Positions 28,999 to 60,819 of a stretch of DNA of 64,000 nucleotides are shown piece after piece. The notes below the pieces were generated by a model. It was not told the DNA's origin, did not search any database, and was given only the letters and a program-made list of their open reading frames with translations. Origin of the DNA: Bacteroidota bacterium (GTDB lineage: Bacteria > Bacteroidota > Bacteroidia > Bacteroidales > PUMT01); the NCBI GenBank assembly GCA_003554865.1, contig PWHJ01000050.1, positions 38,981 to 102,980 on the forward strand. Direction: 5' to 3'. A program made the position numbers and the translations under genes. How positions within the stretch are numbered: position 1 is the stretch's first letter; each line of letters starts with the position of its first letter.

Positions 28999-30392
28999 CG
29001 GATGCCTGAAAAGATACGGTTCCCCCTTATCCTGCCAAGTCCGCTGCCGTGAGGATCCAGTGACAGCCATATGAACATGGGACTGCCGACAATATGATCC
29101 TGGGGCACAAAACCCCAGTATCTTGAATCAAGTGAATTGTGCCTGTTGTCGCCGATCATAAAAAAGTAGTCCATTTCAAAGGTATAGGAACCGGTTTTTT
29201 CTCCGTTTATGAAAATTTCCCCGTTTTCAATCTTCAGATCGTTCTTCTCATATGCCTCTATGATACGCTCATATTTAGATATGTTGCCGGTGTCTATCTC
29301 CACCGTTTTCCCTTCCCGGGGTATGGCAAGCGGACCGAAATGGTCTTCGTTCCATGGGTAGGAGGGGTCATTGGGGAAGACAAACGGACTGAAGTTGCCT
29401 TCTTTGCTTTCCCACCTTGTCGCGGATTCCACATTGGGAAAATCGAGTATTTTTTCCGCTTTTTCGCGGGTCAGGGGTACGAAATATTCAGAAGAGCTGT
29501 AGCTCATTACTTCGTCGGGGTTTACTCCCATATCATTCAGCGCCCTTCTGTTCAGGGGAGAACCGTCTGTGCGGACAATGTGCTGATGCTGAATGGTTTC
29601 AATGCCGGCATCAAAGGAGTCGCCGTTTACAAATATTTCCCCGTTTATGATCTCAAGGGTGTCACCGGGCAGACCGACACATCTTTTTATGTAATTGTCG
29701 CGCTTGTCAACCGGACGCGATATTACCGTGAAATTTTCGTGGATATGCTCCCTGGCTCTTGCCATGTACCTGTTGACCTCCTGACTGCTTCCATCCCTGA
29801 AAAGGCGGTTGCCGCCAAGCTCTTGTGCATACTGCATCATCACGTTGTAATAGCTTTGATCCTGCATCTCCAGTATGACTGTGTCACCGGCGGGAAAATT
29901 GAAGACCACAATATCGTTGTTCTCTATCTCCCTTAATCCGGCAAGCCTCTTGTAAGGCCACTTAACCCATTCAACATATGACTTCACACTTTCTGTCAGG
30001 GGCATGGTATGGTGTGCAAAAGGAAAGGAAATTGGGGTGTTTGGCATTTTTGGACCGTAAGTGAGCTTGCTTACAAACAGGTGATCGCCCACCAGCAGTG
30101 ATTTTTCCATTGAGCCGGTAGGTATTTTATAGTTCTGGAAAAAGAAGATATTAATGAAGGTAACGGCAATAACGGCAAAGATCAGTGCATCCAGCCATTC
30201 GATAAAGGTGCTGTTCTTTCCTTCTCTTTTCTTCCAGAAGGTCCAGTTAACCTTTTTGGTTATATATATATCAAAAATAACCGGCAGTCCGAGTAAAAAC
30301 CAGTAATTGCCCAGCCAGATCACCCAGAGGATATAGGCCAGTGAAACCAGCCCGCATTTTATATAAGCCGCGTATTTATTTAAAAATTGCAT
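28995..30392 (-). CDS. lepB: Signal peptidase I (large Bacteroidota type)
   Basis: 465 aa. The S26 motifs are GSMEKSL (Ser), YIKRCVGLPGD (Lys) and GDNRHNSLDSRYWGFV. Confidence 0.9.
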   Translation of the reverse strand: MQFLNKYAAYIKCGLVSLAYILWVIWLGNYWFLLGLPVIFDIYITKKVNWTFWKKREGKNSTFIEWLDALIFAVIAVTFINIFFFQNYKIPTGSMEKSLLVGDHLFVSKLTYGPKMPNTPISFPFAHHTMPLTESVKSYVEWVKWPYKRLAGLREIENNDIVVFNFPAGDTVILEMQDQSYYNVMMQYAQELGGNRLFRDGSSQEVNRYMARAREHIHENFTVISRPVDKRDNYIKRCVGLPGDTLEIINGEIFVNGDSFDAGIETIQHQHIVRTDGSPLNRRALNDMGVNPDEVMSYSSSEYFVPLTREKAEKILDFPNVESATRWESKEGNFSPFVFPNDPSYPWNEDHFGPLAIPREGKTVEIDTGNISKYERIIEAYEKNDLKIENGEIFINGEKTGSYTFEMDYFFMIGDNRHNSLDSRYWGFVPQDHIVGSPMFIWLSLDPHGSGLGRIRGNRIFSGIR

Positions 30393-34860: not shown

Positions 34861-34944
34861 GCCCGGATGGCGGAATTGGTAGACGCGCTAGTTTCAGGGA
34901 CTAGTGTTCGCAAGAACGTGCTGGTTCGAGTCCAGTTCCGGGCA
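34861..34944 (+). tRNA. tRNA-Leu (anticodon CAG)
   Basis: I folded this by hand. The acceptor stem is GCCCGGA/TCCGGGC. The anticodon stem is CTAGT/ACTAG with loop TTCAGGG. It has a long variable arm and a GGTTCGAGTCC T-loop. CCA is not encoded. Confidence 0.9.
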
Positions 34945-34949
34945 CTGCC

Positions 34950-35035
34950 GCCCAGGTGGTGGAATGGGTAGACACGCCAGCTTGAGGGGCTGGTGCCCGT
35001 TAAAGGGCGTGCTGGTTCGAATCCAGTCCTGGGCA
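34950..35035 (+). tRNA. tRNA-Leu (anticodon GAG)
   Basis: The acceptor stem is GCCCAGG/CCTGGGC. The anticodon stem is CCAGC/GCTGG with loop TTGAGGG. It has a long variable arm and a GGTTCGAATCC T-loop. Confidence 0.9.
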
Positions 35036-35039
35036 CAAC

Positions 35040-42659: not shown

Positions 42660-43004
42660 TTATTCGCCCCTCCCTTCTCTTTGTTTTCTTTCAATAAAGT
42701 AATAAATAATCAGTCCGCTCCCCCCAAGGAGAAATACCATTGAAGAGTAGGCCACTTCCGGTCTTATTGAAGTTGTTGCCTCAAGCAGGTTCCCTGCAAG
42801 CAGTCCTGCAGCCACACCGGCAAGGAAGATCCCCCATTTCAGGCAGGGGTAACCAAACCGGCCGTTTTTATTGTAGAAAATTGAGGCGTCGGCTCCTTTC
42901 TCAATAAGCATCTCGCGCTCCTTTCTCCTGTTTTTTATGTAGGAGAGTGCCACAACGGCGCCGAATATTATTGCCAGAACAAATACAGGTGTTAATTCAA
43001 CCAT
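42660..43004 (-). CDS. Small 3-TM membrane protein (DUF6249-like), divergent from the ECF sigma gene
   Basis: 114 aa with hydrophobic segments and an EREMLIEKG motif. The family call comes from memory only. Confidence 0.5.
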   Translation of the reverse strand: MVELTPVFVLAIIFGAVVALSYIKNRRKEREMLIEKGADASIFYNKNGRFGYPCLKWGIFLAGVAAGLLAGNLLEATTSIRPEVAYSSMVFLLGGSGLIIYYFIERKQREGRGE

Positions 43005-43148: not shown

Positions 43149-43712
43149 ATGGAGTACAGGGAAGACGAATATTACATTGGCAGGGTCCTCGACGGCAATA
43201 CAGACGCTTACGGGTTTCTTGTGGAGAAGCACAAAAACCTTGCCTTTACCATTGCCCTTCGTATTGCCGGAAACAGGGAGGATGCCGAGGAGATAGCCCA
43301 GGATGCCTTTGTAAAAGTTTACCGTTCATTGAAAAATTTCAGGGGCAAGGCGAAATTTACCACATGGCTTTACCGTATTGTTTATAACACGGCGGTTTCA
43401 AAAGTAAGGATAAAAAAAAGATATGTACCCATAGATGAGGCCGGCAGGGGGGATATATACGAAAAGCTTGAAAAGCCGGAAGAGGAGGTGAGCAGTGAAA
43501 AGGAAAGGAAAATGAAAGCCCTTGAGAAGGCAATGGAAGTTTTGCCGGATGATGAAAAAATATTGGTTCAGCTATATTACTACAGTGAGACTCCCGTAAA
43601 GGAGCTTGCAAAAGTGGCGGGCATTTCACAGGCAAATGTAAAGGTTAAGCTTTTCAGGGCAAGGAAGAAGCTTTATGAAGAAATTCAGAGAAACAATGAG
43701 ATATATGCATAA
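43149..43712 (+). CDS. ECF-type RNA polymerase sigma factor
   Basis: 187 aa. It has region 2 (DAEEIAQDAFVKVYRSL, FTTWLYRIVYNTA) and a region 4 HTH (VKELAKVAGISQANVKVKLFRARKKL). Confidence 0.85.
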   Translation: MEYREDEYYIGRVLDGNTDAYGFLVEKHKNLAFTIALRIAGNREDAEEIAQDAFVKVYRSLKNFRGKAKFTTWLYRIVYNTAVSKVRIKKRYVPIDEAGRGDIYEKLEKPEEEVSSEKERKMKALEKAMEVLPDDEKILVQLYYYSETPVKELAKVAGISQANVKVKLFRARKKLYEEIQRNNEIYA

Positions 43713-44136
43713 TAAATTATCAACTATGAGCAGGCTTGATGGAAAGGAAGATAAATTTTTAAGGGACCTTTTCCGTGAAACCGGGCACAAGCAGGCTTCA
43801 GAGGATTTCACCGGTAAGGTTATGGAAAGGGTGCGGTTAGAGACGGTCAAAAAGGAAGAACCCTGGATTGCCAGTGAATGGGTGCTCTTTTTTGTTGCCG
43901 CCGCCTCTTTGGCCGCCCTCTGGGTTTTCGGTAGTCTGATACCGGGGTTTGAAGGTGTTTTAAAAACTTTTGCCGGGAGTGCCGGTATCCTCGAGGAGGG
44001 TTTCAGCAGGCTTTTTTCATATGCCGGCTTCAACGGATATTTTATTTTTGTTGCTGCTGCCGTTTTACTTCCCCTGTTGCTTGATTATTTTTTGAGGCAG
44101 CTGCAAAAAAAGGATGTTAAAGTCCGTATCCCCTGA
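43705..44136 (+). CDS. Putative membrane anti-sigma factor partner
   Basis: ATG 43705 overlaps the sigma stop (ATGCATAA). It has two hydrophobic segments. The start could be as early as 43675. Confidence 0.5.
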   Translation: MHNKLSTMSRLDGKEDKFLRDLFRETGHKQASEDFTGKVMERVRLETVKKEEPWIASEWVLFFVAAASLAALWVFGSLIPGFEGVLKTFAGSAGILEEGFSRLFSYAGFNGYFIFVAAAVLLPLLLDYFLRQLQKKDVKVRIP

Positions 44137-44303
44137 AAATCAAGCCTCCAGGAACATGGTCCGGCTCTGGTGAGAACGGGGCCGGATTTTAAAAATTCTG
44201 TTTTTTTGCCTGTTCAGTTCATTTTTGTCAAATCTTCTTTGCTATTAAGGGAAATTTAATTTAGGTTTGGGCTGGTATTGAAAACAGTCCAAAATTTTTC
44301 ATT

Positions 44304-44924
44304 GTGAAGAGCCTTTCAGATTCTGAAATTTATTATGGTATTCGCAATAAAGACAATGATGTTTTGGAATATCTGTATAAAAAATTTTTCCCTTATATCC
44401 TTAAAGTTGTAAAAGAAAGCGGGGGAGATGAGCATGATGCCCGTGATCTGTTCCAGGATGCGGTAGTTGCCATCTACAAGCAGGTCCGCGATGACAAGGT
44501 TCGCATAAGAGAGTCTTTTTCGGCATATTTTACAGTAATGTGCAGGTACCTCTGGTATGATGCAAAGGGTAGTAATGCCTCAACAAAGGAGGTCCTTCAA
44601 ACCCGGCTGAGAGATAATGTTGAAGTGGCATCTGAGCAGGAAGAGCCTTATGAAGACAGATCAAAGCATATTGCCGGGGATCTTCAGCTCCGCAGGGAAA
44701 AAATATACCAGAGGTGCTACCGGAAGTTGGCAACCGACTGCAAAAAGGTTCTTACAATGTTTTACAGGAAACACTCCTATGTTCAAATAGCCTGCAGGAT
44801 GGGCTATGCCAGCAGCGGTTATGCAAGGAGAAAAAAATACCTTTGCTGGAGGCACTTAATGGATCTTATCAAAAATGACAAGGAATACAAAAATCTCACG
44901 GAAGGGAGAGAGAGTGAAGAGTGA
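44304..44924 (+). CDS. Sigma-70-family-like transcription factor (divergent ECF-like)
   Basis: 206 aa with a GTG start. It has a region-2-like segment (DARDLFQDAVVAIYKQV, FSAYFTVMCRYLWYD) and a C-terminal HTH-like segment (SYVQIACRMGYASSGYARRKKYLC). Confidence 0.6.
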   Translation: MKSLSDSEIYYGIRNKDNDVLEYLYKKFFPYILKVVKESGGDEHDARDLFQDAVVAIYKQVRDDKVRIRESFSAYFTVMCRYLWYDAKGSNASTKEVLQTRLRDNVEVASEQEEPYEDRSKHIAGDLQLRREKIYQRCYRKLATDCKKVLTMFYRKHSYVQIACRMGYASSGYARRKKYLCWRHLMDLIKNDKEYKNLTEGRESEE

Positions 44925-44930
44925 TCCCGG

Positions 44931-47777
44931 TCATTTTCTGCGGCGCCTGAGAGTGTAAACCAGGACACCCACGGCAATGAGGGCACCAATTCCTCCAATC
45001 ACTCCCCGGCTCAGGTAAGGAGATTTTACAGCACTGCGGGGGTTACCTATGCATACGTAGCCTCCCCAGAAATAAGGATGCGCTCTAAGCATATCGGCAT
45101 TATCAAGAAACTCCAGCCTTGCATGCCTCAATGCTTCATCTGTGCGCTTTCCATTTCTTATGTGAGAGTAAAAATTTTCCATTATCCCTACACCCGACTT
45201 GTCTTCAATCTCCCAAAGAGTCATTACTATGGAAGGAACTCCCGCATAAAGGAAACCCCGTGCCAGACTCATTATGCCTTCTCCTTTAAGCAGTTTCCCG
45301 TAACCGCTGTTGCAGGAGCTCAGCACCGCAAGTCTGGCGTTGAGCCTGAGATTGTAAATTTCATATGTGTTCAGCAGTCCGTCTTCGGCCTCAGATTCTC
45401 CGGTATCGGAGAATGCCAGCTTTGAGAACATGGGGTTCTCATCGTCTATTATCGTGTGCATTGCAAGGTGAATGAAACGGTAATGGGGTGCATTGCTTTT
45501 GAAATTTGTATTGCAGGCATCTTCGTCCAGCAGTGCTTTGCCGCCGAATATATCGGCGGCCATCTGCGCCTCCTCCCTTGCACCCGGAAGAGGGGTAAGT
45601 GTTTGCCGGGCCAGGCGGTAACGGTTAACTTCATCCGGGGAGTCTTCGTTATCCATCCCTTCGTACATAGGGGCGAACGCTATCATGTCGCTTGCGCTTT
45701 CGGTGCCGTGCCCGAGGGTTTCTGTCCATATCGTAGCCGAGTATGCATAGCTCAGGGGATGTTCCCTTAATAGGTAAGGAAGGGTTGCATAGTTTGGCTC
45801 GCCTTGTTCGTTGTTTTCGGTTGTAAGCAGCTCGTAGGGAAAGTAGGAGAGAACGCTGGAGGGTATAATTATCAGTTTTTTGTTCTTTATTCTGGACTGA
45901 AAAGGCTCTATCAGTGTCTTGTAGAGTCGGTAGGAAGTTTCGTTGAATTTTTTGAAGCTTGCCCTTGCATCAGTTGAAACTGAGCTGAAGTTCATTATGT
46001 CAAGAAAATCTTGCACGGTTTCCTCAAGATTGTATGAAAATTCAACATTTTCCCATTGGGCGCCCTTTTTATCGATCAAAAATATGTGTACCGCGGAATC
46101 GCCTGTGCTGTATGACAAAAGAACCTCATCTTTTGAAAGGTGGGATTTGACAGTGCTTATGCAGGTGATACGCGGATCATATTTAAGGTTGAAATATTCT
46201 GGATATTCCTCCTCAAGCTGCTCTTCAAGGCTTTGTATTTGCCCGTTCAGCTCGAATATTCTTTTTTCCCAGTTGGCAATTCTCTGTTCGTTCGGTTTTG
46301 TTTTCTGCCTTTCTTCATATACAAGCTCCCTGTAAGCGGTAAGGGTCCGTTTCAGATTTTCTTCCTCTTCCCTTAATGATTTGGGAACACCGCCAAACTC
46401 CAGGGCTTCAATATTCCGCATTGATGCAAGCAGTACAGCAGCCTTGCTTCTTTCGGAAAAATTAAATCCCTTTTCAAGGTGATCAGGATTTCCCGATTTT
46501 CTGTAGAGTTGCTTTGCCGCATTCATTGCCCGGGGATAGATGTCGGTTTCGCTTTGCGAGAGTTCGAGACGGCTTTCTTCGGTCTGGTATCCCATTCTCA
46601 AATATTCCAGTACTTCTATAGCTTTGTCGTAAGCTTCAATGCTGTATTGAAGGTATCTGGAATTATCCTCTTTTTCTCCCAGCAATTTTAAAACATTGGC
46701 CTTACGTGAGAGCGTTTCATAGAAGTAGGCTTCTGAGATTACATCTTCCCTTTCCGGATTATCCCCCCAATATCCTGATTTGTAATCTGTGCTCACAGCA
46801 ATAAGGGATTGCTGGTACATACCTGCGGCCGTATGAAGCTGGTCAAGCTCTTCGTAAACCCCTCCGATATTCATCAGTATTCTGGACTTGATGGGACTTC
46901 TTTCGCCAAAGTTATGCGAGGCTACTTCGAGGGCTTTTTCATACAATTTCATTGCCCTTTCATAATCGAGGGTAACGTTGGCATGCAAAAGTCCGTAATT
47001 GAGGTAATTGTTTGCAAGTCCGCCCCACATCTCCCCGCGCCTTTCAATGGTTGATTCTATGGCCATATCAAAATAACGGGCCGACTCTTCGGCATTTTCC
47101 ATATAGTAGTGGCTTACCGCGAGGTTACCTGCAGGCACCCTTATTGCCGAAGGGGAGTGTTTTTCCCTTATCCTGAGTGATCTTTCATAATAATCTATTG
47201 CTTTTTTTTGTTCGCCCTGTTCGCTGTAAAGCAGTCCGATATTATTGTAAAGTGATGCCAGCCAGTTCGGGTTCTCCTCATGTGCTTCAAAAATTGCAAG
47301 TGCTCTTTGGTAGTGCTGGAGGGCGGTAGAAAAGTCGCGCTCCTGCCGGAGTATATTACCCTGATTCTGGTAAACAGCTCCCAGGTTAATGTGGTCCGAG
47401 CCGTAATTCTCCTCCAGGATTACCTGGGCTGAATCGTAATACTTAACCGCCTCCCTGCGCCTTAAGAGTACTCGGTTTACTACGCCAAGATTGGAATAAA
47501 CCCCTGCAATTTCCGAAGCTTCTGTTTCTGTCATGTCCCTGTATTTATTCAGGGCTTTAATAAATGAGATGGTTGCCTCTTCAAAAAGGCCCTCGTTGGA
47601 TTGGCTGAAACCTTGACTGTAATATTGGAGTGCTGAATCTGCAATTGATTCTTCATCCGATTCATTTGCCCGGAGATCCTTTGAATATCCATAAAATGAG
47701 AAGAGCCCAATGGCAACAAAAATTAATGTGTAAAAAACAAACCTGGTGCAAAAATTTTTAAGGGCTTTCTTTCTCAT
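44931..47777 (-). CDS. TPR-repeat / CHAT-domain (caspase-like) protein with N- and C-terminal hydrophobic anchors
   Basis: 948 aa with about eight TPR-like repeats (recurrent A..Y/N...G...Y...A). A coiled-coil segment follows. The CHAT domain carries His (FIHLAMHT) and Cys (VLSSCNSG). The C-terminal TM GVIGGIGALIAVGVLVYTL is followed by RRRRK. Confidence 0.85.
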   Translation of the reverse strand: MRKKALKNFCTRFVFYTLIFVAIGLFSFYGYSKDLRANESDEESIADSALQYYSQGFSQSNEGLFEEATISFIKALNKYRDMTETEASEIAGVYSNLGVVNRVLLRRREAVKYYDSAQVILEENYGSDHINLGAVYQNQGNILRQERDFSTALQHYQRALAIFEAHEENPNWLASLYNNIGLLYSEQGEQKKAIDYYERSLRIREKHSPSAIRVPAGNLAVSHYYMENAEESARYFDMAIESTIERRGEMWGGLANNYLNYGLLHANVTLDYERAMKLYEKALEVASHNFGERSPIKSRILMNIGGVYEELDQLHTAAGMYQQSLIAVSTDYKSGYWGDNPEREDVISEAYFYETLSRKANVLKLLGEKEDNSRYLQYSIEAYDKAIEVLEYLRMGYQTEESRLELSQSETDIYPRAMNAAKQLYRKSGNPDHLEKGFNFSERSKAAVLLASMRNIEALEFGGVPKSLREEEENLKRTLTAYRELVYEERQKTKPNEQRIANWEKRIFELNGQIQSLEEQLEEEYPEYFNLKYDPRITCISTVKSHLSKDEVLLSYSTGDSAVHIFLIDKKGAQWENVEFSYNLEETVQDFLDIMNFSSVSTDARASFKKFNETSYRLYKTLIEPFQSRIKNKKLIIIPSSVLSYFPYELLTTENNEQGEPNYATLPYLLREHPLSYAYSATIWTETLGHGTESASDMIAFAPMYEGMDNEDSPDEVNRYRLARQTLTPLPGAREEAQMAADIFGGKALLDEDACNTNFKSNAPHYRFIHLAMHTIIDDENPMFSKLAFSDTGESEAEDGLLNTYEIYNLRLNARLAVLSSCNSGYGKLLKGEGIMSLARGFLYAGVPSIVMTLWEIEDKSGVGIMENFYSHIRNGKRTDEALRHARLEFLDNADMLRAHPYFWGGYVCIGNPRSAVKSPYLSRGVIGGIGALIAVGVLVYTLRRRRK

Positions 47778-47811
47778 AACGGAAAACAGGATTAAGCTGA
47801 TTTTTCCCCTC

Positions 47812-47819
47812 CAAACATA
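47812..47819 (-). promoter_or_regulatory. Candidate TAnnTTTG -7 box for the CHAT gene
   Basis: The minus strand reads TATGTTTG, 35 nt upstream of the ATG at 47777. Confidence 0.35.
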
Positions 47820-48164
47820 TTAAAATTTTTCGATTTATTCTGATTGCTTTGCAATATATTTGTTTTTAAGCTTATAAATATATATTTTGCCTTAATAAGA
47901 TGTTGTTCGACCAATTTTAGTTTTTGGTCGAATCAGAAAGGGTGAAAACTTTACGGTCATTCCGCATAAAACACAATTTTTACAGGCATTCTTCAAGTCT
48001 CATGTTTACAACAAAATAGCAATTGTGCTTATTTAGAACACATTAAAACTTTTCTCTTTTTTTTTGTCACAAATTTCGGGTTTTCCCACAGTTAAGTGAA
48101 ATCAAAATTAACTGGAAAATTAACAGAAATAACATTAAAATATTAACCTGAAATTTTTTAAGTC

Positions 48165-48374
48165 ATGAAAACTACAGACAACTTTTTCAGCCTTCTTGCC
48201 GGACTTCCCGGTGAAACAGTTTTGACCCGCAACGAGCTCAGAGCAATAAAAGGTGGCAGCACAAACGGATTGCCTGCCGGAGAAGATGAGGATATTTTAA
48301 TACCCCCGCCGGATCATGATGAAGAAAAAGATGACGAAGATGAAGATGAGGGTGGAGACGATAACGAGGATTAA
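48165..48374 (+). CDS. Double-glycine-leader precursor peptide with a hyper-acidic core
   Basis: 69 aa. The leader is MKTTDNFFSLLAGLPGETVLTRNELRAIKGG, with the GG codons at 48252..48257. The core is STNGLPAGEDEDILIPPPDHDEEKDDEDEDEGGDDNED. A cognate C39-ABC exporter lies downstream. Confidence 0.7.
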   Translation: MKTTDNFFSLLAGLPGETVLTRNELRAIKGGSTNGLPAGEDEDILIPPPDHDEEKDDEDEDEGGDDNED

Positions 48375-48407
48375 ATAAAACAGACTTCGGATAAAGCGAT
48401 TCTTTTA

Positions 48408-48455
48408 AAACGGGAGACGCCGGCATAAACTGAGACCTGAGCCGGCTTCCCGTTT
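48408..48455 (+). terminator. Two-tier stem-loop after the peptide gene (possible terminator or attenuator)
   Basis: The outer 8-bp stem is AAACGGGA/TCCCGTTT and the inner 6-bp stem is GCCGGC/GCCGGC, with a 16-nt loop. It starts 34 nt after the stop and has no long U tract. Confidence 0.45.
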
Positions 48456-48799
48456 GGAAGAGCAAACCGGTTTGCACTTAAAGTGTTCTGGTGCAATACT
48501 TAACCGGAGGGAAGTTATTTGAATTGGTTTTTAAGCTGCATTGTTTGGGGTTGGCCTGAAGCCTCTCTGGCTTCTTTGGTGGATTGCAGGTTAAATAATG
48601 CGGTTGAGCTGACCGGGCTGGTGTGTAAAGACTGTAATGGTTTTGTTGCTGAAAGGAACCGTGACAGTTGGCCTGGCCGGATCAAACCGCCCGGAACATT
48701 TTGCGTAATAATAATTGGCACCCTGTAAGCCCAAAGTAGTCCTGCATTTGTTAAAAGGGCAACTTTTTTGGGCGAATGAGGTAAATAAAGTAAAGGGTA

Positions 48800-48807
48800 T
48801 AATTTTG
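48800..48807 (+). promoter_or_regulatory. Candidate TAnnTTTG -7 box upstream of the anti-sigma-like TPR gene
   Basis: TAATTTTG lies 64 nt upstream of ATG 48871. Confidence 0.35.
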
Positions 48808-48870
48808 GCTGGAAAAGAAATAAAATATGGAAAATTCCAAGTATAAATTAATGTTCAAAACCTTTTTAAA

Positions 48871-49641
48871 ATGAAAAAAAAGCTTAATTATCAGGCGTTT
48901 ATTGACAAATTCCTGAACGGCGAAATGGAGGGTGAAGAACTTCAGTGGTTCAGAGGGGAAATGGAGGTTAACCCACGCCTCTCTGAAGAGGTGAGGCTTC
49001 AGCAGGAGGTTAGTGAAGCTATCGTCGATGAGGATGTAATGGAATTGCGTGATCAGATGAGCAGGTTGTTTGACAGTGATCGCAGGACCATCAAGGAAGA
49101 AAGCGGAAAGAGGGTCAGCCCGACCGTTGTCAAGCTGGCAGCCGCTTCCATGATTGCCGTATTGATGGCGATCGCATCGTTGTTCCATTTTTACGGGCAC
49201 AATGATGCCACGGAAGATCTTTTCTCCATGCACTATGAAACATATGATGGTGTGATGAATGTGCGTTCAGGGGATGCCCATGTGGATGAAATTATGACCG
49301 GTGCAATTATGAAGTACGAGAACGGAAAGTTCGAAGAGGCTGCTTCAATGTTTGAAGATGTGCTCAAAGCCGACCCGGGTAATGTTGCATCCAGGTTCTA
49401 TGCCGGAATTTCCCATATGGAAACGGAAAGGTATCAAAAAGCCTCCGGAATGCTAACCGAGGTAATTGATCACAATGATAACCTTTTCGTGGAGAATGCA
49501 AGGTGGTATCTCGGACTCTGCTATCTGAAGATGGAAAACCCGGAAAAGGCCAGGGAGCAGTTTGGCTCTTTAGCCGAAGGTGAAGGATTTTACAGTGATG
49601 AGGCGGCAAAGATACTTGACAGGCTCCGGGAAAACGGATAG
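48871..49641 (+). CDS. Single-pass membrane protein: anti-sigma-like N-domain, TM helix, TPR C-domain
   Basis: 256 aa. The N-terminus is FIDKFLNGEMEGEELQWFRGEMEVNPRLSEEVRLQQEV. The TM helix is VVKLAAASMIAVLMAIASLF. C-terminal TPR-like repeats follow (FEEAASMFEDVLKADPGN..., ARWYLGLCYLKMENPEKA). Confidence 0.6.
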   Translation: MKKKLNYQAFIDKFLNGEMEGEELQWFRGEMEVNPRLSEEVRLQQEVSEAIVDEDVMELRDQMSRLFDSDRRTIKEESGKRVSPTVVKLAAASMIAVLMAIASLFHFYGHNDATEDLFSMHYETYDGVMNVRSGDAHVDEIMTGAIMKYENGKFEEAASMFEDVLKADPGNVASRFYAGISHMETERYQKASGMLTEVIDHNDNLFVENARWYLGLCYLKMENPEKAREQFGSLAEGEGFYSDEAAKILDRLRENG

Positions 49642-49764
49642 GTTCCTGTTCCGTCGCGGTTATGCAAGGATAAGGAAAAGTAAATCTTTGTAAATCTTCC
49701 CGCGTATTGCATCTTGAGCTTGAGAGATCCGCTTAAGGTGTGTGTGAATAAAATTAAAAGGAGT

Positions 49765-50589
49765 ATGCCAATTTATAGTGAAAACAGTAAGCTATTATCT
49801 TCCATAAAGGAGCTGAAGGAGGAGCTCGAGAGAAAAAACAGGGAGTTCGACTGCATCAGGTCGGTTTTTCTCTCCAATGTTTCTCACGAGATCAGAACTC
49901 CCATGAATGCAATTGTCGGTTTTGCAAATTTGCTGGCGGATGATGATATGAGTGTAGAGGATAAAAAGGAATTTATTCGCCATATCAATGATAACAGTGA
50001 AATGCTCCTGAGATTGATAGATAATATGATAGATCTGACAATGCTGCAGTCGGGAAAAATTAAGCTTGAAAATAAAAGTTTCTCCATTAACTCGTTAATA
50101 GATGAGCTTTGCAGTGATTACAGGAATTCTGAAACTGTCAGAAGCAAAGGATTGCAGATAATGACCTCGGCAAAGCGGGACAACCCCGCGGAAGCTGTAA
50201 GTGATCCGCGCCGCCTTAAATCTGCAATGCAGCATCTTATAGACAGCGCCATAAGGAATACCCAGGAAGGATTCGTCAAGTTCGGTTACTTCATGGAAGA
50301 AAACAGCCTTCACTTTTTTATAAGATATACCGGATGTGCATTTGATCTTGACGAATTTCAGGGAGATCCCGTAGATGCTCAGGATTATACGGGAAGTATG
50401 AACAACTCCGGCCTTTCGGTTGTAATTGCAAAAAGTATTGTGGAGATAATGAGAGGCAGTGTGTGGAGTGAAAACGGGATAAAAGATCATCCTGCACTGC
50501 ACTTTACAATACCTTTTAAAAAGAGTACAGGATTAATGAACAGGTTCTATAAACTTGGAATTAAAACACGAAAAAATATAGCAATTTAA
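49765..50589 (+). CDS. Soluble histidine-kinase-like protein (HisKA plus degenerate HATPase domain)
   Basis: It has a coiled-coil N-terminus and an H-box (SNVSHEIRTPMNAIVGF). An N-box-like segment (HLIDSAIRNT) is present. The G1/G2 boxes are replaced by RYTGCAF and NNSGLSV. There is no TM segment. The ORF track begins at TTG 49714, and ATG 49765 is the first Met. Confidence 0.7.
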   Translation: MPIYSENSKLLSSIKELKEELERKNREFDCIRSVFLSNVSHEIRTPMNAIVGFANLLADDDMSVEDKKEFIRHINDNSEMLLRLIDNMIDLTMLQSGKIKLENKSFSINSLIDELCSDYRNSETVRSKGLQIMTSAKRDNPAEAVSDPRRLKSAMQHLIDSAIRNTQEGFVKFGYFMEENSLHFFIRYTGCAFDLDEFQGDPVDAQDYTGSMNNSGLSVVIAKSIVEIMRGSVWSENGIKDHPALHFTIPFKKSTGLMNRFYKLGIKTRKNIAI

Positions 50590-50618
50590 AAATATAACCG
50601 TTTCATATTTTATTTGTT

Positions 50619-50698
50619 AAGGTTGCCGGCAAGTTTTTCCATGAGTTGTCTTTCCGTTATCAGCACTCGCCTGATTTAATGCCGGCAACCTTTTTTTT
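50619..50698 (+). terminator. 13-bp inverted repeat with a 48-nt loop, followed by T8
   Basis: AAGGTTGCCGGCA (50619..50631) pairs with TGCCGGCAACCTT (50680..50692), followed by TTTTTTTT. It lies between the HK-like gene and the PCAT gene. Confidence 0.4.
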
Positions 50699-50764
50699 CC
50701 CAACAGTTGGATTTTTCAAAAATACCTGACTATATTTAGCCTCAAATTATTTCAGTTTTCATAA

Positions 50765-52957
50765 ATGGGCTTTCCGCATTATAAGCAACCCGATGCAATG
50801 GATTGCGGTCCTACCTGCCTGAGGATGGTGGCCGCATTTTATGGTAAACGATACTCCCTGGCAACTCTTCGCGACAGGAGCTATATAACGCGCGAAGGTG
50901 TCAGTCTTCTCGGTATCAGTCAGGCCGCCGAAAGTATAGGTTTCAGGACCCTGGGAGTTAAGCTAACTTTTGAGCAACTCACCCGCGAAGCCCGGCTTCC
51001 TGCGATTGTTCACTGGAATCAGGACCACTTTGTTGTACTCTTTAAAGTCACCGGCAAAAAGGGGAGAGAAAAGCTTCATGTGGCGGATCCCGCCGGGGGG
51101 ATTGCCCGGTTCACCCGTGAGGAGTTTATGCGTTGCTGGGCCTCAACTGCAGAAGAGGATCGCGAAAAAGGGATTGTCCTGCTGCTTGAGCCGACACCTG
51201 ATTTTCATGCGGCTGAAGATGACAAAAAAAACAAATCTTCTTTCGGCTTTCTCTTTTCTTATCTCTCCCCCTACAGGAAGCTGGTTGTTCAGCTTTTTCT
51301 GGGTCTGCTCCTGGGCAGTTTGCTGCAGCTAATATTTCCTTTTCTCACGCAAAGTATTGTCGACTACGGTATAGGGAACCAAAATATCAGCTTTATCTAT
51401 CTGGTTCTCATTGCACAATTGGTGCTGACAGTCAGCAGGGCTTCGGTCGACTTTATACGCAACTGGATACTCCTGCATATCGGGGTGCGTATCAATATAT
51501 CACTGATATCAGACTTTCTTATTAAGCTAATGAGATTGCCCATGAAATTTTTTGATACAAAGCTCACGGGCGATCTTCTTCAGCGTATAGGTGACCACAG
51601 GCGTATAGAGACTTTCCTTACGGGCACTACACTCAGGATACTTTTCTCCTTTGTAAATCTTTTCATATTCGGACTGGTTCTTTTGTACTACAACAGGCTT
51701 ATTTTTGCAGTTTTTTTTATCGGCAGCGCATTGTATGCCGGGTGGGTATGGATATTCCTGAAAAGAAGGGAGGAACTCGACTATAAAAGGTTTACACAGC
51801 AATCGGCGCACCAAAGCAACCTTATTCAGCTTATACAGGGCATGCAGGAAATAAAGCTGCAGGGTTGCGAACAACAAAAAAGGTGGGAGTGGGAACAGAT
51901 CCGTGCACGGCTTTTCCGGATCAGTGTAAAGGGACTGGCTCTGAGGCAATATCAGCGATCGGGGGCACTTATTTTGAATGAGATGAAAAATATCTTTATT
52001 ACCGTGATAGCGGCAACTGCAGTGGTGGAGGGGACAATGACGCTGGGAATGATGCTTGCCGTGCAGTATATAATCGGACAACTTAACAGTCCAATAGAAC
52101 AGATCATAGGCTTTTTCAATACAACACAGGATGCAAGGATCAGTCTTGAAAGGCTTGGTGAGGTACATAACCGTCCCGATGAAGAGGATCCCGGGGAGTC
52201 CAGAATACAGGAAATACCCCCTGCGGCATCGCTGAAGGCAAATTCGCTTTCATTTCAGTATGAGGGACCGGAATCTGAAATGGTGCTTGACGATGTCTCT
52301 TTTACAATTCCTAATGGCGGCCAGACAGCCATAGTGGGAACTTCGGGCAGCGGAAAAACCACCCTTATCAGGCTTTTGCTGGGATTTTACCCGCCGGTAA
52401 AAGGGGAGATACTCCTGGGTAATAACCGGCTGGATGTGTTCAGCTTGAGAATGTGGCGAAGAAATTGCGGAGTGGTAATGCAGGACGGATATATCTTTTC
52501 CGATACAATAGCAGGCAACATTGCACCGGGTGAGGAAAAAATTGATAAGGTGAGGCTGCTCGATGCTGCGCGTACGGCAAATATATCCGATTTTATCGAG
52601 GAGCTCCCCCTTGGATACAATACAAAAATAGGAAGTGAGGGCCACGGACTCAGTCAGGGTCAAAAACAAAGACTTCTGATTGCAAGAGCCGTCTACAAGG
52701 ATCCCTCCTATATCTTTTTCGACGAGGCTACCAATGCTCTGGATGCCAACAATGAAAAGGTTATCATGGAAAACCTGCAGGAGTTTTTCAAAGGGAAAAC
52801 GGTGGTTTTTGTGGCTCACAGGCTTAGCACCGTCAAGAATGCCGACCATATAGTAGTTCTGGAAAAAGGAAAAGTAGCGGAAACGGGCACTCATAAAGAA
52901 CTTACAGAAAAACGCGGGGCCTATTATACTCTGGTTAAAAATCAGTTGGAATTGTAA
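50765..52957 (+). CDS. Peptidase-C39-domain ABC exporter (PCAT; bacteriocin-type processing/export ATPase)
   Basis: 730 aa. The C39 active-site context is YKQPDAMDCGPTCLRM (Gln, Cys) and VHWNQDHFVVL...VADP (His, Asp). It has a 6-TM ABC domain, Walker A (GTSGSGKTT), the signature LSQGQKQR and Walker B (IFFDEAT). Confidence 0.92.
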   Translation: MGFPHYKQPDAMDCGPTCLRMVAAFYGKRYSLATLRDRSYITREGVSLLGISQAAESIGFRTLGVKLTFEQLTREARLPAIVHWNQDHFVVLFKVTGKKGREKLHVADPAGGIARFTREEFMRCWASTAEEDREKGIVLLLEPTPDFHAAEDDKKNKSSFGFLFSYLSPYRKLVVQLFLGLLLGSLLQLIFPFLTQSIVDYGIGNQNISFIYLVLIAQLVLTVSRASVDFIRNWILLHIGVRINISLISDFLIKLMRLPMKFFDTKLTGDLLQRIGDHRRIETFLTGTTLRILFSFVNLFIFGLVLLYYNRLIFAVFFIGSALYAGWVWIFLKRREELDYKRFTQQSAHQSNLIQLIQGMQEIKLQGCEQQKRWEWEQIRARLFRISVKGLALRQYQRSGALILNEMKNIFITVIAATAVVEGTMTLGMMLAVQYIIGQLNSPIEQIIGFFNTTQDARISLERLGEVHNRPDEEDPGESRIQEIPPAASLKANSLSFQYEGPESEMVLDDVSFTIPNGGQTAIVGTSGSGKTTLIRLLLGFYPPVKGEILLGNNRLDVFSLRMWRRNCGVVMQDGYIFSDTIAGNIAPGEEKIDKVRLLDAARTANISDFIEELPLGYNTKIGSEGHGLSQGQKQRLLIARAVYKDPSYIFFDEATNALDANNEKVIMENLQEFFKGKTVVFVAHRLSTVKNADHIVVLEKGKVAETGTHKELTEKRGAYYTLVKNQLEL

Positions 52958-52978: not shown

Positions 52979-54349
52979 ATGGATCAGACAAATGACAAAT
53001 CCAACCTGGAGAAAAAAGCGGAAAAGATCACAATCCGCTCCGAAGAGGTTCAGGATATTCTGGGCACTCCGCCCGGATGGCTGGTAAGATGGGGTATAGG
53101 AGTAATGTTTGCAGCGGTTATGATAGTACTTCTGGGAAGCGGGTTTTTCATGTACCCCGATACGGTGAAGGCCCCGGTTATAATTACAACCGAAAATCCC
53201 CCCTCCGTGATTGCTGCAAGAGCCGGCGGCAGACTGGAAACTATTTTCAATGAGGACGGAAAATCTGTAAACCGTAATGATACTCTTGCAGTGATTGAAA
53301 ACCCGGCAAGCTACAGGGATGTTTTCAGATTGCGCACTATTTTAAAAGAACTTAATTCTAAAGAGAGGCCGGAGGAGTTTTTGTTGAATTTTTCCTTTCC
53401 CGGCGATATGGTCCTCGGTGAGATACAGCCAGCATACAACCGCTTGCTGAAGGCTTCCCTGGAATATCGGCTGTTTGACCGCCAGGATCTGTATGCAAAA
53501 AAAATAGGCGCACTTGAAGATGAGCTGAAAGAGTATGAAGATTATCACAATATTTTGAAGTCAAGGGAAAGGCTTGTATTGGAGGAGCTTGATCTGATCA
53601 GAAAACAGTTTGCAAGGGATTCGGCCCTTTATGCAAACGATGTTATTTCCTCCTCCGACTATGAAAAGGCCCGCTCTGAAGTGCTGGCTGCAGAAAAGGA
53701 GGTGGAGTCGGCCAGGGTGTCTCTTTCAAATGCCGCCGTTACCATTGCCCGGCTTAAACATAATATAACCGATACCATGATGGAGGAGGAGGAGAGACGG
53801 CAGGATCTGCTGACCGAGCTTAACGGCTCACTCAGGCAACTTGAAAGCTCCATAGCCGAATGGGAAAGGAAGTACCTTATGGTTGCAACTACAGACGGTG
53901 TACTGAATTATGTGATGACATGGAGCGAGCTTCAGGAAGTAAGGGCAGGGGACCCGGTTTTCACAGTTGTGCCACGGGAAATGGGAGAGCTTCAAGGCAG
54001 GCTCATTCTTCCCCAAAGAAGGGCCGGGAAGGTTAGTCCCGGACAAAGGGTCAACATAAAGCTCGACGGGTATCCCTTTATGGAGTACGGCATGCTGGAG
54101 GCACGGGTGGAATCTATTTCCAGCGGACCCCTGGAGGGTGGATTCCCTGTAGTATTGTCGCTTACAAAGGGAGCCGTGACTTCGTATGGTTATGAATTGG
54201 AGGTTGTGAGAGAACTTTCAGGGGAGGCCGAGATCACTACCGAGGAGATGAGCCTTCTGGAACGCCTGGTGAGTCCAATACGCCACCTGCTGAGACACCA
54301 TATTCGGGATGCTGAAAATCAGACAAGCGCCGAAAAGAATGTTCGTTGA
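52979..54349 (+). CDS. HlyD-family membrane-fusion/adaptor protein
   Basis: 456 aa. It has an N-terminal TM (WGIGVMFAAVMIVLLGSGFF), a long coiled-coil hairpin and C-terminal beta domains. It lies 21 nt downstream of the PCAT gene. Confidence 0.85.
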   Translation: MDQTNDKSNLEKKAEKITIRSEEVQDILGTPPGWLVRWGIGVMFAAVMIVLLGSGFFMYPDTVKAPVIITTENPPSVIAARAGGRLETIFNEDGKSVNRNDTLAVIENPASYRDVFRLRTILKELNSKERPEEFLLNFSFPGDMVLGEIQPAYNRLLKASLEYRLFDRQDLYAKKIGALEDELKEYEDYHNILKSRERLVLEELDLIRKQFARDSALYANDVISSSDYEKARSEVLAAEKEVESARVSLSNAAVTIARLKHNITDTMMEEEERRQDLLTELNGSLRQLESSIAEWERKYLMVATTDGVLNYVMTWSELQEVRAGDPVFTVVPREMGELQGRLILPQRRAGKVSPGQRVNIKLDGYPFMEYGMLEARVESISSGPLEGGFPVVLSLTKGAVTSYGYELEVVRELSGEAEITTEEMSLLERLVSPIRHLLRHHIRDAENQTSAEKNVR

Positions 54350-59373: not shown

Positions 59374-60819
59374 ATGAGGTATTACGTGCTTTCCCATATA
59401 ATGAAAGATATACTCAAAAGCAAATTTACCCGGAAGTATCTTTTAAATCAGTTTGACAAGAGCCTTTATAATGCACTGGTGAAAAATGCCACAAGAAACC
59501 TTGTGGAAACCCAGAAAAAAAAGTATCATTTTCTCTCAACAATGCTTAAGGCCTCTGTCAGCAACCTTGAAAAAGGGTATTTTTCCGAAAAGGTCTTCAG
59601 GCGAATAATAAATGTGCTGGTTGAAAATGCTTTTCTTGCAAAGGAAAAGTATAAGGACAAGCTTGAGCAATTCAGGGAAGAGTATGGTGATTATCCTCCC
59701 ACATTTTTGGTGGTTTCTCCTACTCAGGCATGCAATCTCACCTGTGAGGGCTGTTATGCTGCCTCAGGTACAGAAGCAAAACCGTCTATTCCCTATCATA
59801 TTTTCGACCGTATAATATCAGAGGCCAGGGACAAGCTGCACAACCGCTTTATTACAATCAGCGGAGGCGAGCCTTTTATATACAAAAGTGAGGGTAAAAC
59901 ACTGATGGATATATTTGAAAAGTATAATGACATGTTTTTCCTTGTCTATACCAACGGAACCCTCATCACACAAGAGCTGGCCGAAAGAATGGCCGGGGCG
60001 GGTAACGTTACACCGGCTATTTCCGTTGAGGGGTTTGAGAAGGAGACGGATGCGCGCCGCGGAGAGGGAACGCACCGCCGGGTTCTGCAGGCCTTTGAGA
60101 ACCTCAGAAATGCCGGAGTGCCTTTCGGTATATCTGTTACTGCCACAAGCGACAATGCCGGTATTCTGCTTGATGATAAGTTCTATGAATACTTTTTTGA
60201 CAGGGAAAGGGCCATATATATGTGGCAGTTCCAGCTTATGCCAATAGGAAGGAGCAACAAGGCTTTTGAGAAGATGGTTCCGCCGGAAAAACGTGTGGAG
60301 CTTTACAGGAAGTGGGACGAGATGATAACCAATGAAAAGTATTGTGTGGCCGATTTCTGGAACAGCGGTGTTCTTTCAAACGGCTGCCTTGCATACGGAA
60401 GAAGGGGAGGATATCTCCACATTGACTGGAACGGCAATATTATGCCCTGTGTTTTTGTCCCTTATTATGTAGATAATATCTATGATCTTTACAATAACGG
60501 AAAAACCCTTGTGGATGCCCTCTTTTCCGATTTTATGAAAAACGGGCGTAAGTGGATAGACGATTATGGTATGCGCAATCCGAAAGAAGCTAAAAACTGG
60601 CTGATGCCCTGTTCCATACGCGATCATTATGCAAATTTCAGAGAGAATATCCTGCCTGAAAATGCCAAACCGGAAAATGAGCAGGCGCGCGAATCCCTTG
60701 AGGATGATAACTACTACAAGAACCTGGTTCTATACGACGATAGACTGGAAGAGCTAACCGGTGATATTTGGGAAAAGGAATACCTGAAGAAAGAGAGCAC
60801 GGTTGAGCAAAACCGTTAA
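59374..60819 (+). CDS. Radical SAM protein (about 100-aa helical N-extension, SPASM-like Cys-containing C-region)
   Basis: 481 aa. It has a CxxxCxxC motif (ACNLTCEGCYA) and GGEPF. AGGAGGG lies 6 nt upstream of the ATG. Confidence 0.8.
   Translation: MRYYVLSHIMKDILKSKFTRKYLLNQFDKSLYNALVKNATRNLVETQKKKYHFLSTMLKASVSNLEKGYFSEKVFRRIINVLVENAFLAKEKYKDKLEQFREEYGDYPPTFLVVSPTQACNLTCEGCYAASGTEAKPSIPYHIFDRIISEARDKLHNRFITISGGEPFIYKSEGKTLMDIFEKYNDMFFLVYTNGTLITQELAERMAGAGNVTPAISVEGFEKETDARRGEGTHRRVLQAFENLRNAGVPFGISVTATSDNAGILLDDKFYEYFFDRERAIYMWQFQLMPIGRSNKAFEKMVPPEKRVELYRKWDEMITNEKYCVADFWNSGVLSNGCLAYGRRGGYLHIDWNGNIMPCVFVPYYVDNIYDLYNNGKTLVDALFSDFMKNGRKWIDDYGMRNPKEAKNWLMPCSIRDHYANFRENILPENAKPENEQARESLEDDNYYKNLVLYDDRLEELTGDIWEKEYLKKESTVEQNR

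Follow-up and report, generated by a model that had tools for sequence, protein, structure and literature searches.

What might a caspase-like protease do on the outer side of a bacterial inner membrane, next to a gene for an exported peptide? The question arises from a stretch of 64,000 nucleotides (nt) of a Bacteroidota bacterium of the Bacteroidales (contig PWHJ01000050.1, positions 38,981 to 102,980; the window, by which we mean the whole stretch), in which one gene encodes a 948-residue protein that combines a tetratricopeptide repeat (TPR) array with a CHAT domain. An earlier interpretation made from the letters of the window (the sequence-only reading) had proposed that this protein is tethered on the periplasmic face of the membrane by two terminal anchors. 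Our answer has parts of different strength. The protease is one component of a conserved Bacteroidota module, a linkage that we computed across loci and that joins it to genes for an extracytoplasmic function (ECF) type σ factor, an anti-σ-like protein and small peptides with a double-glycine (GG) leader. The protease is very probably exported and held at the periplasmic side of the inner membrane; that it works there within this peptide/σ/anti-σ module as modelled below is a reading to which we give even chances. Beyond this, we tentatively propose that an acidic exported peptide is read by periplasmic TPRs and switches CHAT site-1 cleavage of a separate anti-σ factor, which would release the σ factor and lead to more peptide; this appears possible to us, and somewhat short of an even bet.

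Fold and predicted membrane topology of the TPR-CHAT protease

Both the open reading frame and the 948-residue sequence given by the sequence-only reading were confirmed (Table 1). The CHAT domain matches Pfam PF12770 with E = 2.6e-57 and 194.9 bits against a cut-off of 24, over model positions 3-289 of 289, and matches to the Pfam families TPR_12, TPR_1 and TPR_2 cover approximately residues 90-290. The histidine of FIHLAMHT (H774) and the cysteine of VLSSCNSG (C822), which had been pointed out as the candidate dyad, are invariant together with H770 in an alignment of 60 homologues with identities down to 23%, and the candidate dyad columns are likewise invariant in a second alignment of 34 orthologues. 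An AlphaFold2 (AF2) model built on the 60-homologue alignment reached a predicted local distance difference test score (pLDDT) of 90.2 and a predicted template modelling score of 0.85. Its two terminal helices (residues 2-29 and 920-947) enclose a disordered linker at 31-39, an α-solenoid at 40-532 and an α/β domain at ~550-911, and pLDDT is mostly above 90 in the CHAT region.

When the model was compared with the PDB by Foldseek, the best whole-chain matches were Csx29, separases and DdvA (probability 1.00; alignments of ~800-940 columns). The match to Csx29 has E = 1.8e-17 and a template modelling score of 0.57, normalised to the length of the target, at a sequence identity of only ~12%, and the match to DdvA has an E value of ~5e-14. 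Structure prediction had been suggested as a check of the caspase fold, and the AF2 model and the Foldseek matches agree with the Csx29, separase and DdvA folds. A phmmer search of the CHAT protein against the PDB sequences returned TPR proteins only, so the kinship to solved CHAT proteins lies at the level of the fold only. In the chain, a TPR/α-solenoid on the N-terminal side precedes the CHAT domain, which is the domain order of the separase/craspase-type TPR-CHAT architecture. The 948-residue protein is, by these matches, a member of the CHAT family and a predicted caspase-like cysteine protease.

Concerning its location, a Kyte-Doolittle scan with a 19-residue window and a threshold of 1.6 found only two segments at or above that threshold, namely residues 9-27 (1.84) and 925-943 (2.17), the next best segment scoring 1.32. 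The charges are distributed unevenly around them, with five K/R and no D/E in residues 1-12, two K/R and six D/E in residues 32-50, and RRRRK at the C-terminus. The two terminal hydrophobic segments and the basic end noted before are hence real. What they are likely to be became clearer from a comparison set of 36 orthologues with 40-63% identity. An N-terminal hydrophobic region is present in 34 of these; the two without one (P0032 and P0035) look like artefacts of the assigned start site. The hydrophobic core of this region has a median length of only ~13-14 residues, and in about half of the orthologues there are 13-16 uncharged residues in total, often with a helix breaker, followed by an AXA-like site (VFA|F, AVA|SG, ISA|AA, the bar marking the point of cleavage). 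Cores that are too short to anchor a protein, together with such sites, indicate cleavable Sec signal peptides in those orthologues.

The C-terminal end behaves differently, in that all 36 orthologues have an uncharged span of at least 19 residues followed by basic residues. The tails beyond this helix vary between 2 and 16 residues and share no family-wide motif, which speaks for a plain anchor and against a sorting signal. With its 20 uncharged N-terminal residues the window protein is an outlier within the set. The segment fits a 14-residue h-region and a 6-residue c-region ending in GYS|KD, a site that satisfies the -3/-1 rule, behind an n-region of charge +5. The N-terminus is therefore ambiguous between a cleaved signal and an uncleaved signal-anchor, and is probably cleaved. 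Because the N-terminal signal looks cleavable in most orthologues, the mature protease is likely held by the C-terminal helix alone. The last β-strand of the CHAT domain (907-911) ends only ~10 residues before that helix begins, and the catalytic domain would consequently sit at the membrane surface.

Taken together with the gene context, the view that the bulk of the protease faces the periplasm is well supported, though only indirectly. The N-terminal signal is conserved in the family, some relatives carry a lipobox or PDZ domains, which supports export, and the TPR-CHAT part of DdvA is known to be periplasmic. The protease is also genetically linked to a GG peptide predicted to be exported and to an anti-σ-like protein with an outward TPR domain; this domain is placed in the periplasm because the N-terminal domain of the same protein would bind a cytoplasmic σ factor. 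Of the topology proposed by the sequence-only reading, the periplasmic bulk and the C-terminal anchor were retained, and the notion of two terminal anchors is not well supported in view of the short, cleavable-looking signals of the orthologues.

Among more distant homologues (P0058-P0120), many have signal-peptide-like starts, and some are named cyanobacterial by their sources. These proteins end in ...FYWA.F.L.GDW and have no transmembrane helix, and three of them (P0075, P0102 and P0107) carry PDZ domains. Judging by these sequences, exported TPR-CHAT proteins may be widespread well beyond the Bacteroidota.

A conserved module in the Bacteroidota

A genome scan with a profile made from the 34-sequence alignment, in which each species was represented by a single genome, brought up no fewer than 593 relatives in Bacteroidota. 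A membrane-tethered, periplasm-facing TPR-CHAT protein that shares a promoter region with an exported peptide gene had been described as unusual, and this description goes too far in view of that number, of the signal-peptide-like starts of distant TPR-CHAT proteins and of DdvA, a periplasmic TPR-CHAT protein that has already been published (PMC11506125). All 80 loci that were retrieved (numbered with the prefix L) come from Bacteroidota, namely Bacteroidales and Marinilabiliales. The carriers include the cultured organisms Marinifilum flexuosum DSM 21950, Labilibaculum manganireducens, Ancylomarina euxinus, Sunxiuqinia elliptica, Mangrovibacterium marinum and Gaoshiqia sediminis.

The same gene set surrounds orthologues at 63%, 44% and even 28% identity. 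It consists of a σ-like gene of ~205 codons, one to five small peptide genes, a ~255-residue TPR protein with one transmembrane segment and often a soluble kinase. Co-occurrence was counted in the 39 loci whose sequence extends for 5 kb or more to each side of the protease gene, and partners within 10 kb were included. A σ-like gene was found in 35 of the 39 and the TPR/transmembrane anti-σ-like partner in 38, with both present in 35 and at least one of them in 38; a histidine kinase was found in 20. Of the 58 loci that contain both genes, 32 have the σ gene directly followed by the anti-σ-like gene in the same orientation, the canonical operon layout of an ECF σ factor and its anti-σ factor, and in 21 further loci, including the window, the pair is parted only by the CHAT and peptide genes. 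Compared with the window, two loci (L002 and L003) carry the block of five genes in reversed orientation, as one unit and with identical flanking genes. A C39 ABC transporter and its HlyD adaptor adjoin the module in the window and in L001.

The idea that the module is part of a mobile or defence island was rejected, the genes that flank it being housekeeping genes. A PADLOC search matched only a generic TPR model (E = 5.6e-8) and gave nothing for the σ factor, the peptide, the partner or the kinase. We found no description of a corresponding Bacteroidota module in the literature, in a search that was in part poorly targeted, nor in the search made for the HetF comparison, and CHAT is absent from the main text of the ECF reclassification paper.

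The 206-residue neighbour of the protease matches Pfam Sigma70_r2 with E = 8e-7 and the NCBIfam model TIGR02937 (sigma70-ECF) with 44.5 bits against a cut-off of 42.9, over residues 21-171. Its AF2 model consists of two helical domains with a disordered linker between them; the top PDB fold matches are all ECF σ factors, and the σ4 domain superimposes on that of SigL at 1.6-2.4 Å. According to this model, the protein is an ECF (group 4) σ factor with σ2 and σ4 domains only. A second canonical ECF σ factor (σ2 and σ4 in Pfam) is encoded at 43149-43712 of the window and overlaps a gene at 43675-44136 for a 153-residue transmembrane protein without a Pfam match; the two are probably an independent σ/anti-σ pair. 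A DUF6249 membrane protein (42660-43004, minus strand) adjoins this second σ gene, and the same set, with two DUF6249 copies, stands beside the module in L002 and L003.

The 256-residue partner has a helical N-terminal domain of ~65 residues and Pfam TPR matches. Throughout its family there is a single transmembrane segment, preceded by K/R and followed by acidic residues, which corresponds to an N-in orientation. The predicted periplasmic part is the most conserved one and contains a juxtamembrane motif, LF..YY.PY..NVRS, and a TPR segment. Among 26 partner N-termini the only recurring Pfam family is zf-HC2 (7 of 26, best E = 7e-4). The top PDB match of a profile of this domain, a Nif11-domain protein (E = 2e-4 over 34 residues), was treated as uninformative. 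The assignment of the partner as an anti-σ factor rests more on gene order than on its sequence and is weak at the level of the latter. In loci of the Prolixibacteraceae type (L037, L044, L050, L052, L055, L060, L066, L068 and L069) the partner has ~500 residues, with a cytoplasmic region of ~335 residues before the transmembrane segment as compared to ~85 in the window type.

A gene for an exported peptide had been pointed out before. It proved to be real and to encode a GG leader, and its product is predicted to be exported; the proposed regulatory region shared with the protease gene was also correct and holds across the family, that is, more widely than claimed. A homologous peptide gene occurs at the equivalent position in most loci, in one to five copies per module, and a divergent GG-leader gene lies within 700 bp of the CHAT gene in at least 44 of 68 loci. 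Our first pattern for GG peptides missed leaders ending in LGG or FGG, and the peptide counts are accordingly lower bounds. The leaders, which comprise ~30 residues (MKTT...LRAIKGG in the window), are near-identical in close relatives, whereas the cores differ. The 44 predicted cores are 7-39 residues long (median 15.5), 43 of them are net negative (median charge -4) and none has two cysteines. Typically, an acidic run is followed by hydrophobic residues, as in DEDILIPDP, PIIIEE, IVEDLD and EDEDVWL, and examples of predicted mature peptides are YQDKCINEDILV and ISRDMDLYVEDLE. As far as the predicted cores allow such a statement, this profile is that of a pheromone rather than that of a bacteriocin.

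In L017 (8941-9539) and L020 (8955-9753), both from Marinifilum, and in L003 (8537-9589) the peptide gene is repeated in tandem, with four to five copies that are identical or nearly so, with YQDKCINEDILV repeated four times and ...DEDILIPDPEPGDKNE five times as examples, which suggests selection for a high peptide dosage. In the window, a non-coding gap of 496 nt (48375-48870, plus strand) lies downstream of the peptide gene and extends to the anti-σ-like gene. Its folding is better than that of shuffled sequence (z = -3.1, equalled by 0 of 100 shuffles), and a strong GC-rich hairpin directly follows the peptide stop codon. Rfam gave no match in the gap, and tblastn and blastn detected in it no remnant of the second peptide gene that is present in L001. 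The gap may be an attenuator that parts high peptide expression from downstream read-through.

Upstream of the peptide genes we found a family motif, GGGT[TAC]ACCTTTTT-N10-GG[AT]AT[AT]AA, with rigid spacing and at 72-106 nt before the peptide ATG; the halves of this σ-type promoter can be written GGGTTACC-N-GGAATAAA, with TGTCAC... as an alternative form. A weight matrix trained on 27 peptide-gene sites was used to search 1.45 Mb on both strands and gave 71 matches, compared to 1 in shuffled sequence. These include 36 sites before GG-peptide genes, 17 before the σ gene, three before the kinase gene, two before the partner gene and three before the CHAT gene. The σ-gene sites represent an independent confirmation because they had been left out of the training of the matrix. 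The "CHAT" sites (L032, L042 and L056), plus L043, correspond to peptide-CHAT operons. In the clade of the window the counterpart of the family motif is a co-varying variant, TGTCAC-N13-G[TA]ACCTC, which occurs in L002, L003, L005 and L006. The window candidate itself, TGTCACAAATTTCGGGTTTTCCCAC, is unique in the window, and a copy with three spacer substitutions is found at the equivalent position in L001. A generic scan for σ70 promoters and terminators over 44000-50800 gave no excess over the shuffled expectation.

The kinase has only a coiled coil at its N-terminus, and a σ-type promoter stands before its gene in L024, L031 and L080; no response regulator was seen among the called genes of L001-L004. 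The peptidase-containing ABC transporter (PCAT), presumably the exporter that also cleaves the leader, matched NCBIfam bacteriocin/NHLP exporter families, in each case below the curated cut-off, and it lies with the HlyD gene 2.4 kb downstream of the peptide gene. Some 5 kb downstream of HlyD, beyond genes for pyruvate phosphate dikinase and phosphoenolpyruvate carboxykinase, the window has a radical-SAM gene (59374-60819, plus strand) that is probably unrelated to the peptide module. Elsewhere in the window there are an unusually long signal peptidase I homologue of 465 residues (28995-30392, minus strand), whose Peptidase_S26 match is split in two, and tandem tRNA-Leu genes with the anticodons CAG and GAG, 5 nt apart (34861-35036, plus strand). 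An Rfam search of the window returned these two tRNAs only.

Table 1. Features of the protease gene and its module, with positions in the window.
Feature	Position	Strand	Description
ECF-type σ factor	44304..44924	+	206 residues; convergent with the CHAT gene, 6 nt between the stop codons
TPR-CHAT protease gene	44931..47777	-	948 residues, ATG start; predicted layout signal peptide - TPR array - CHAT - C-terminal transmembrane helix
C-terminal transmembrane helix and tail	44934..45017	-	Helix 921-943; predicted cytoplasmic tail RRRRK 944-948
CHAT (caspase-like) domain	45042..45938	-	Residues 614-912; Pfam, invariant alignment columns
Candidate dyad codon C822	45312..45314	-	Cysteine of VLSSCNSG
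Candidate dyad codon H774	45456..45458	-	Histidine of FIHLAMHT
TPR / α-solenoid region	46182..47660	-	Residues 40-532, with long helices 466-524; Pfam TPR families and AF2 secondary structure
N-terminal export signal (predicted)	47682..47777	-	Residues 1-32; n-region MRKKALKNFCTR, 20 uncharged residues, candidate site GYS|KD
Clade-specific ECF-type promoter candidate	48065..48089	+	TGTCACAAATTTCGGGTTTTCCCAC; 76 nt upstream of the peptide ATG
GG-leader peptide precursor	48165..48374	+	69 residues; divergent, 387 bp from the CHAT gene
Peptide leader	48165..48257	+	Residues 1-31
Peptide core (predicted)	48258..48371	+	Acidic; STNGLPAGEDEDILIPPPDHDEEKDDEDEDEGGDDNED
Anti-σ-like partner	48871..49641	+	256 residues; helical domain ~1-70, transmembrane segment 86-108 (nt 49126-49194), TPR domain
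Soluble histidine kinase	49714..50589	+	291 residues; HisKA and HATPase_c, no transmembrane segment, no sensor domain
Peptidase-C39 ABC transporter (PCAT)	50765..52957	+	Pfam Peptidase_C39, ABC_membrane and ABC_tran; presumed peptide exporter
HlyD-family periplasmic adaptor	52979..54349	+	Pfam HlyD_3, NCBIfam type_I_hlyD

A possible peptide circuit and its rivals

Our observations support an ECF σ factor that is autoregulated, at least in other loci of the family, and has an exported peptide as its chief target, with a putative anti-σ factor whose TPR domain would share a compartment with the membrane-proximal TPR-CHAT protease. From our point of view, the parts of the module could work together as follows. 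The Sec pathway would carry the protease across the inner membrane, the signal being cleaved in most orthologues and probably here, and the C-terminal helix with its Arg-rich tail would hold the protein on the periplasmic face. From the dedicated promoter, the σ factor would drive expression of the peptide genes and usually of its own gene, in some lineages also of the protease gene, and a C39-peptidase ABC transporter would export the short acidic mature peptides. TPRs exposed in the periplasm, those of the protease or those of the anti-σ factor, might then capture the accumulated peptide, and the bound peptide would control a CHAT cut in the periplasmic or juxtamembrane region of the anti-σ factor (site-1). 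Intramembrane proteolysis would come next and the σ factor would be released, with an autoinducing peptide circuit as the outcome. Peptide-controlled cleavage of the partner is proposed because Csx29 and DdvA supply the logic. Export, signal cleavage, binding of the σ factor by the 256-residue protein, its cutting by the protease and the role of the peptide as ligand are all steps that we infer.

Several observations weigh against this scheme. Export is deduced from sequence features and gene context, and the N-terminal segment of the window protein, with its 20 uncharged residues, could be an uncleaved anchor. As to the anti-σ role of the partner, a profile of its N-terminal domain run against the PDB found no anti-σ factor, and zf-HC2 recurs in only the minority of N-termini given above, with the zinc ligands absent. 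A C39 exporter lies within 10 kb in only 6 of the 39 well-flanked loci. The promoter variant of the window clade was found before the peptide gene only, and none was seen before the σ or CHAT genes. The kinase has no role in the model, and the peptide might equally act as activator, as substrate or as inhibitor. Finally, a site-1 role of a CHAT domain is unproven even for DdvA (PMC11506125).

Three alternatives concern the location of the protease. It could form a hairpin in which the N-terminal segment is not cleaved, so that the membrane holds the TPR-CHAT part at either end and the two termini lie in the cytoplasm, a variant that would leave the context and function of the module unchanged. 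The continuous AF2 helix at residues 2-29 and the 20 uncharged residues behind the +5 n-region, which are enough to span a membrane and more than most orthologues have, speak for such a hairpin. It is at odds with the orthologue h-regions of ~9-15 residues, their helix breakers and their AXA-type sites, and also with the window protein itself, whose segment can be divided into an h- and a c-region with an acceptable site and is directly followed by the disordered acidic stretch 31-39, as expected of a mature N-terminus; on balance, we regard it as somewhat unlikely. Much less probable is a cytoplasmic, tail-anchored protease, in which the N-terminal segment would be no export signal and the C-terminal helix would hold the bulk inside, in the manner of the cytoplasmic CHAT effectors known from defence systems. 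The best-studied prokaryotic CHAT proteases, e.g., Csx29, are indeed cytoplasmic, as is the CHAT domain of HetF, and a few relatives such as P0044 have no recognisable N-terminal hydrophobic segment. However, the signal is found in nearly all orthologues apart from the two apparent start-site artefacts, the charges obey the positive-inside rule for an N-in protein with its bulk outside, the linked partners are extracytoplasmic, and neither PADLOC, beyond its generic TPR model, nor the housekeeping flanks point to defence. One could also imagine that the C-terminal helix and its Arg cluster are a cleavable sorting signal (exosortase-, rhombosortase- or sortase-like), by which the protease would be released or moved to another layer. 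The layout of the C-terminal end, where a hydrophobic helix runs into a terminal cluster of basic residues, does resemble such signals, and one clade has a conserved YR..YP just before the helix, but the tails of 2-16 residues share no motif across the family and no gene for a sorting enzyme recurs in the neighbourhoods examined, so that we consider this very improbable as well.

Two further alternatives accept an exported protease and differ in what it would act on. The main rival to anti-σ cleavage is that the protease trims or degrades the exported peptide, as a maturation step or as a quorum-quenching timer, while the TPR domain of the anti-σ-like protein senses the peptide. The peptide and CHAT genes are always neighbours, divergent or in one operon, the combination of an acidic run and a hydrophobic motif in the cores (DEDILIP, EDEDVWL, IVEDLD) could be a recognition site, and the conservation of the TPR domain, the highest within the anti-σ-like protein, fits ligand binding. 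Many predicted mature peptides, however, have only 7-13 residues, which leaves little to trim; the experimentally supported TPR-CHAT precedents beside σ factors concern the cutting of σ inhibitors; and a membrane-proximal protease of 900 residues with its large TPR platform would seem oversized for a decapeptide. We thus hold peptide processing to be unlikely. Clearly less probable again is a bacteriocin locus, or one for a ribosomally synthesized and post-translationally modified peptide, from which antimicrobial peptides or their precursors would leave via PCAT/HlyD, with the CHAT protein in maturation or immunity and the σ/anti-σ pair regulating production. GG leaders, a C39 ABC transporter and HlyD form the classic bacteriocin export set, and the peptide genes are often multi-copy. 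Class II bacteriocins are usually cationic, amphipathic and longer, whereas the cores found here are short, almost without exception net negative and devoid of cysteine pairs. In addition, the module lacks a conserved modification enzyme, the peptide has no match among the bacteriocin families of NCBIfam or Pfam, and the exporter is linked in only those few loci counted above.

Comparison with known systems

To our knowledge, the functions of the numerous bacterial TPR-CHAT proteins are almost unknown beyond CRISPR type III-E, and we know of no peptide-based cell-cell signalling that has been established in Bacteroidota. In this context, the module offers a protease, a likely substrate and a likely ligand as three linked genes, together with a recognisable promoter, in cultured organisms. 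If the proposed circuit is true, many Bacteroidota would use a peptide pheromone in a quorum-sensing-like manner for which no description exists from diderm bacteria, and it would add peptide-based cell-cell signalling to this phylum. The protease would then be the first ligand-defined periplasmic CHAT protease and a trans-acting counterpart of the autoproteolysis proposed for DdvA, for which neither the activating signal nor proof of CHAT site-1 cleavage has been obtained so far (PMC11506125).

DdvA of Myxococcus xanthus, a periplasmic TPR-CHAT protein according to cryo-electron microscopy, is proposed to use its CHAT domain as a site-1 protease ahead of RseP in response to an unknown signal (PMC11506125). 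It resembles the window protease in the separase/craspase-type TPR-CHAT part on the periplasmic side, the link to an ECF σ factor and the His-Cys dyad; in DdvA, as in inactive craspase, the dyad is in a resting state. In DdvA, however, the anti-σ domain, the transmembrane segment and the TPR-CHAT part form one polypeptide with an N-in orientation and an N-terminal anchor, for which autoproteolysis in trans within a dimer has been proposed. In the window, by contrast, the anti-σ-like protein and the protease are encoded by separate genes, and the protease combines a predicted export signal at its N-terminus with an anchor at its C-terminus. Residues 1-32 of the protease consist of the charged n-region and the hydrophobic segment only, and its one other transmembrane segment is C-terminal. 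Since an anti-σ domain is missing, the protease does not belong to the DdvA-like anti-σ factors, although its setting resembles that of DdvA. The anti-σ-like protein possesses a TPR domain of its own and, unlike in DdvA, a candidate signal (the GG peptide) is encoded in the module. DdvA-like proteins have been reported only in Myxococcota and in one Comamonas, whereas the family of the window protease belongs to Bacteroidota; and DdvA controls a defence island, whereas the window module lies among housekeeping genes.

The best whole-chain structural match, Csx29, belongs to the type III-E craspase (PDB 8eey, 8eex) and is likewise a TPR-CHAT protein that cuts a σ inhibitor. It has been shown experimentally that Csx29 cleaves Csx30, the inhibitor of an ECF-like σ factor that autoregulates its locus (PMC10028731). 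The craspase is, however, cytoplasmic, has neither signal peptide nor transmembrane segment and is activated by RNA-guided Cas7-11 and not by a peptide, and Csx30 is soluble and unrelated to the 256-residue TPR partner.

HetF of Anabaena/Nostoc, the founding CHAT protein, is similar in being a membrane-associated CHAT protein with TPRs and one transmembrane segment and functions in cell division and heterocyst differentiation (PMC8406250). Its domains follow the different order CHAT-transmembrane segment-TPR, with an N-terminal CHAT domain without signal peptide, which must be cytoplasmic because an internal green fluorescent protein fusion fluoresces (PMC8406250).

With respect to the proposed mechanism, two further systems are instructive. 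If the window model holds, both it and DegS-RseA-σE would employ a peptide-activated periplasmic site-1 protease. DegS is membrane-anchored, binds the C-termini of outer-membrane proteins by its PDZ domain and cuts a single-pass anti-σ factor, thereby freeing an autoregulated ECF σ factor. It is a serine protease with a PDZ sensor, whereas the window protein is a predicted CHAT cysteine protease with a putative TPR sensor, and its ligand is a by-product of stress, whereas that of the window system would be a dedicated, encoded and exported peptide. The latter feature recalls the ComC/CSP-ComAB and Blp systems of streptococci with their short unmodified GG peptides, C39 ABC export and positive feedback, and the conserved leader combined with a variable mature peptide among close relatives is reminiscent of pherotypes. 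Those systems are Gram-positive and rely on a membrane histidine-kinase receptor and a response regulator, whereas the window system belongs to diderm Bacteroidota and would combine a σ/anti-σ and periplasmic protease read-out with strongly acidic peptides, its kinase being soluble and sensorless.

Overall, the module could represent a split, trans-acting and peptide-linked version of the TPR-CHAT/anti-σ/σ theme in a new phylum. If this is true, craspase, DdvA and the window system would share a general principle, namely that a TPR-CHAT protease cuts the inhibitor of a σ factor.

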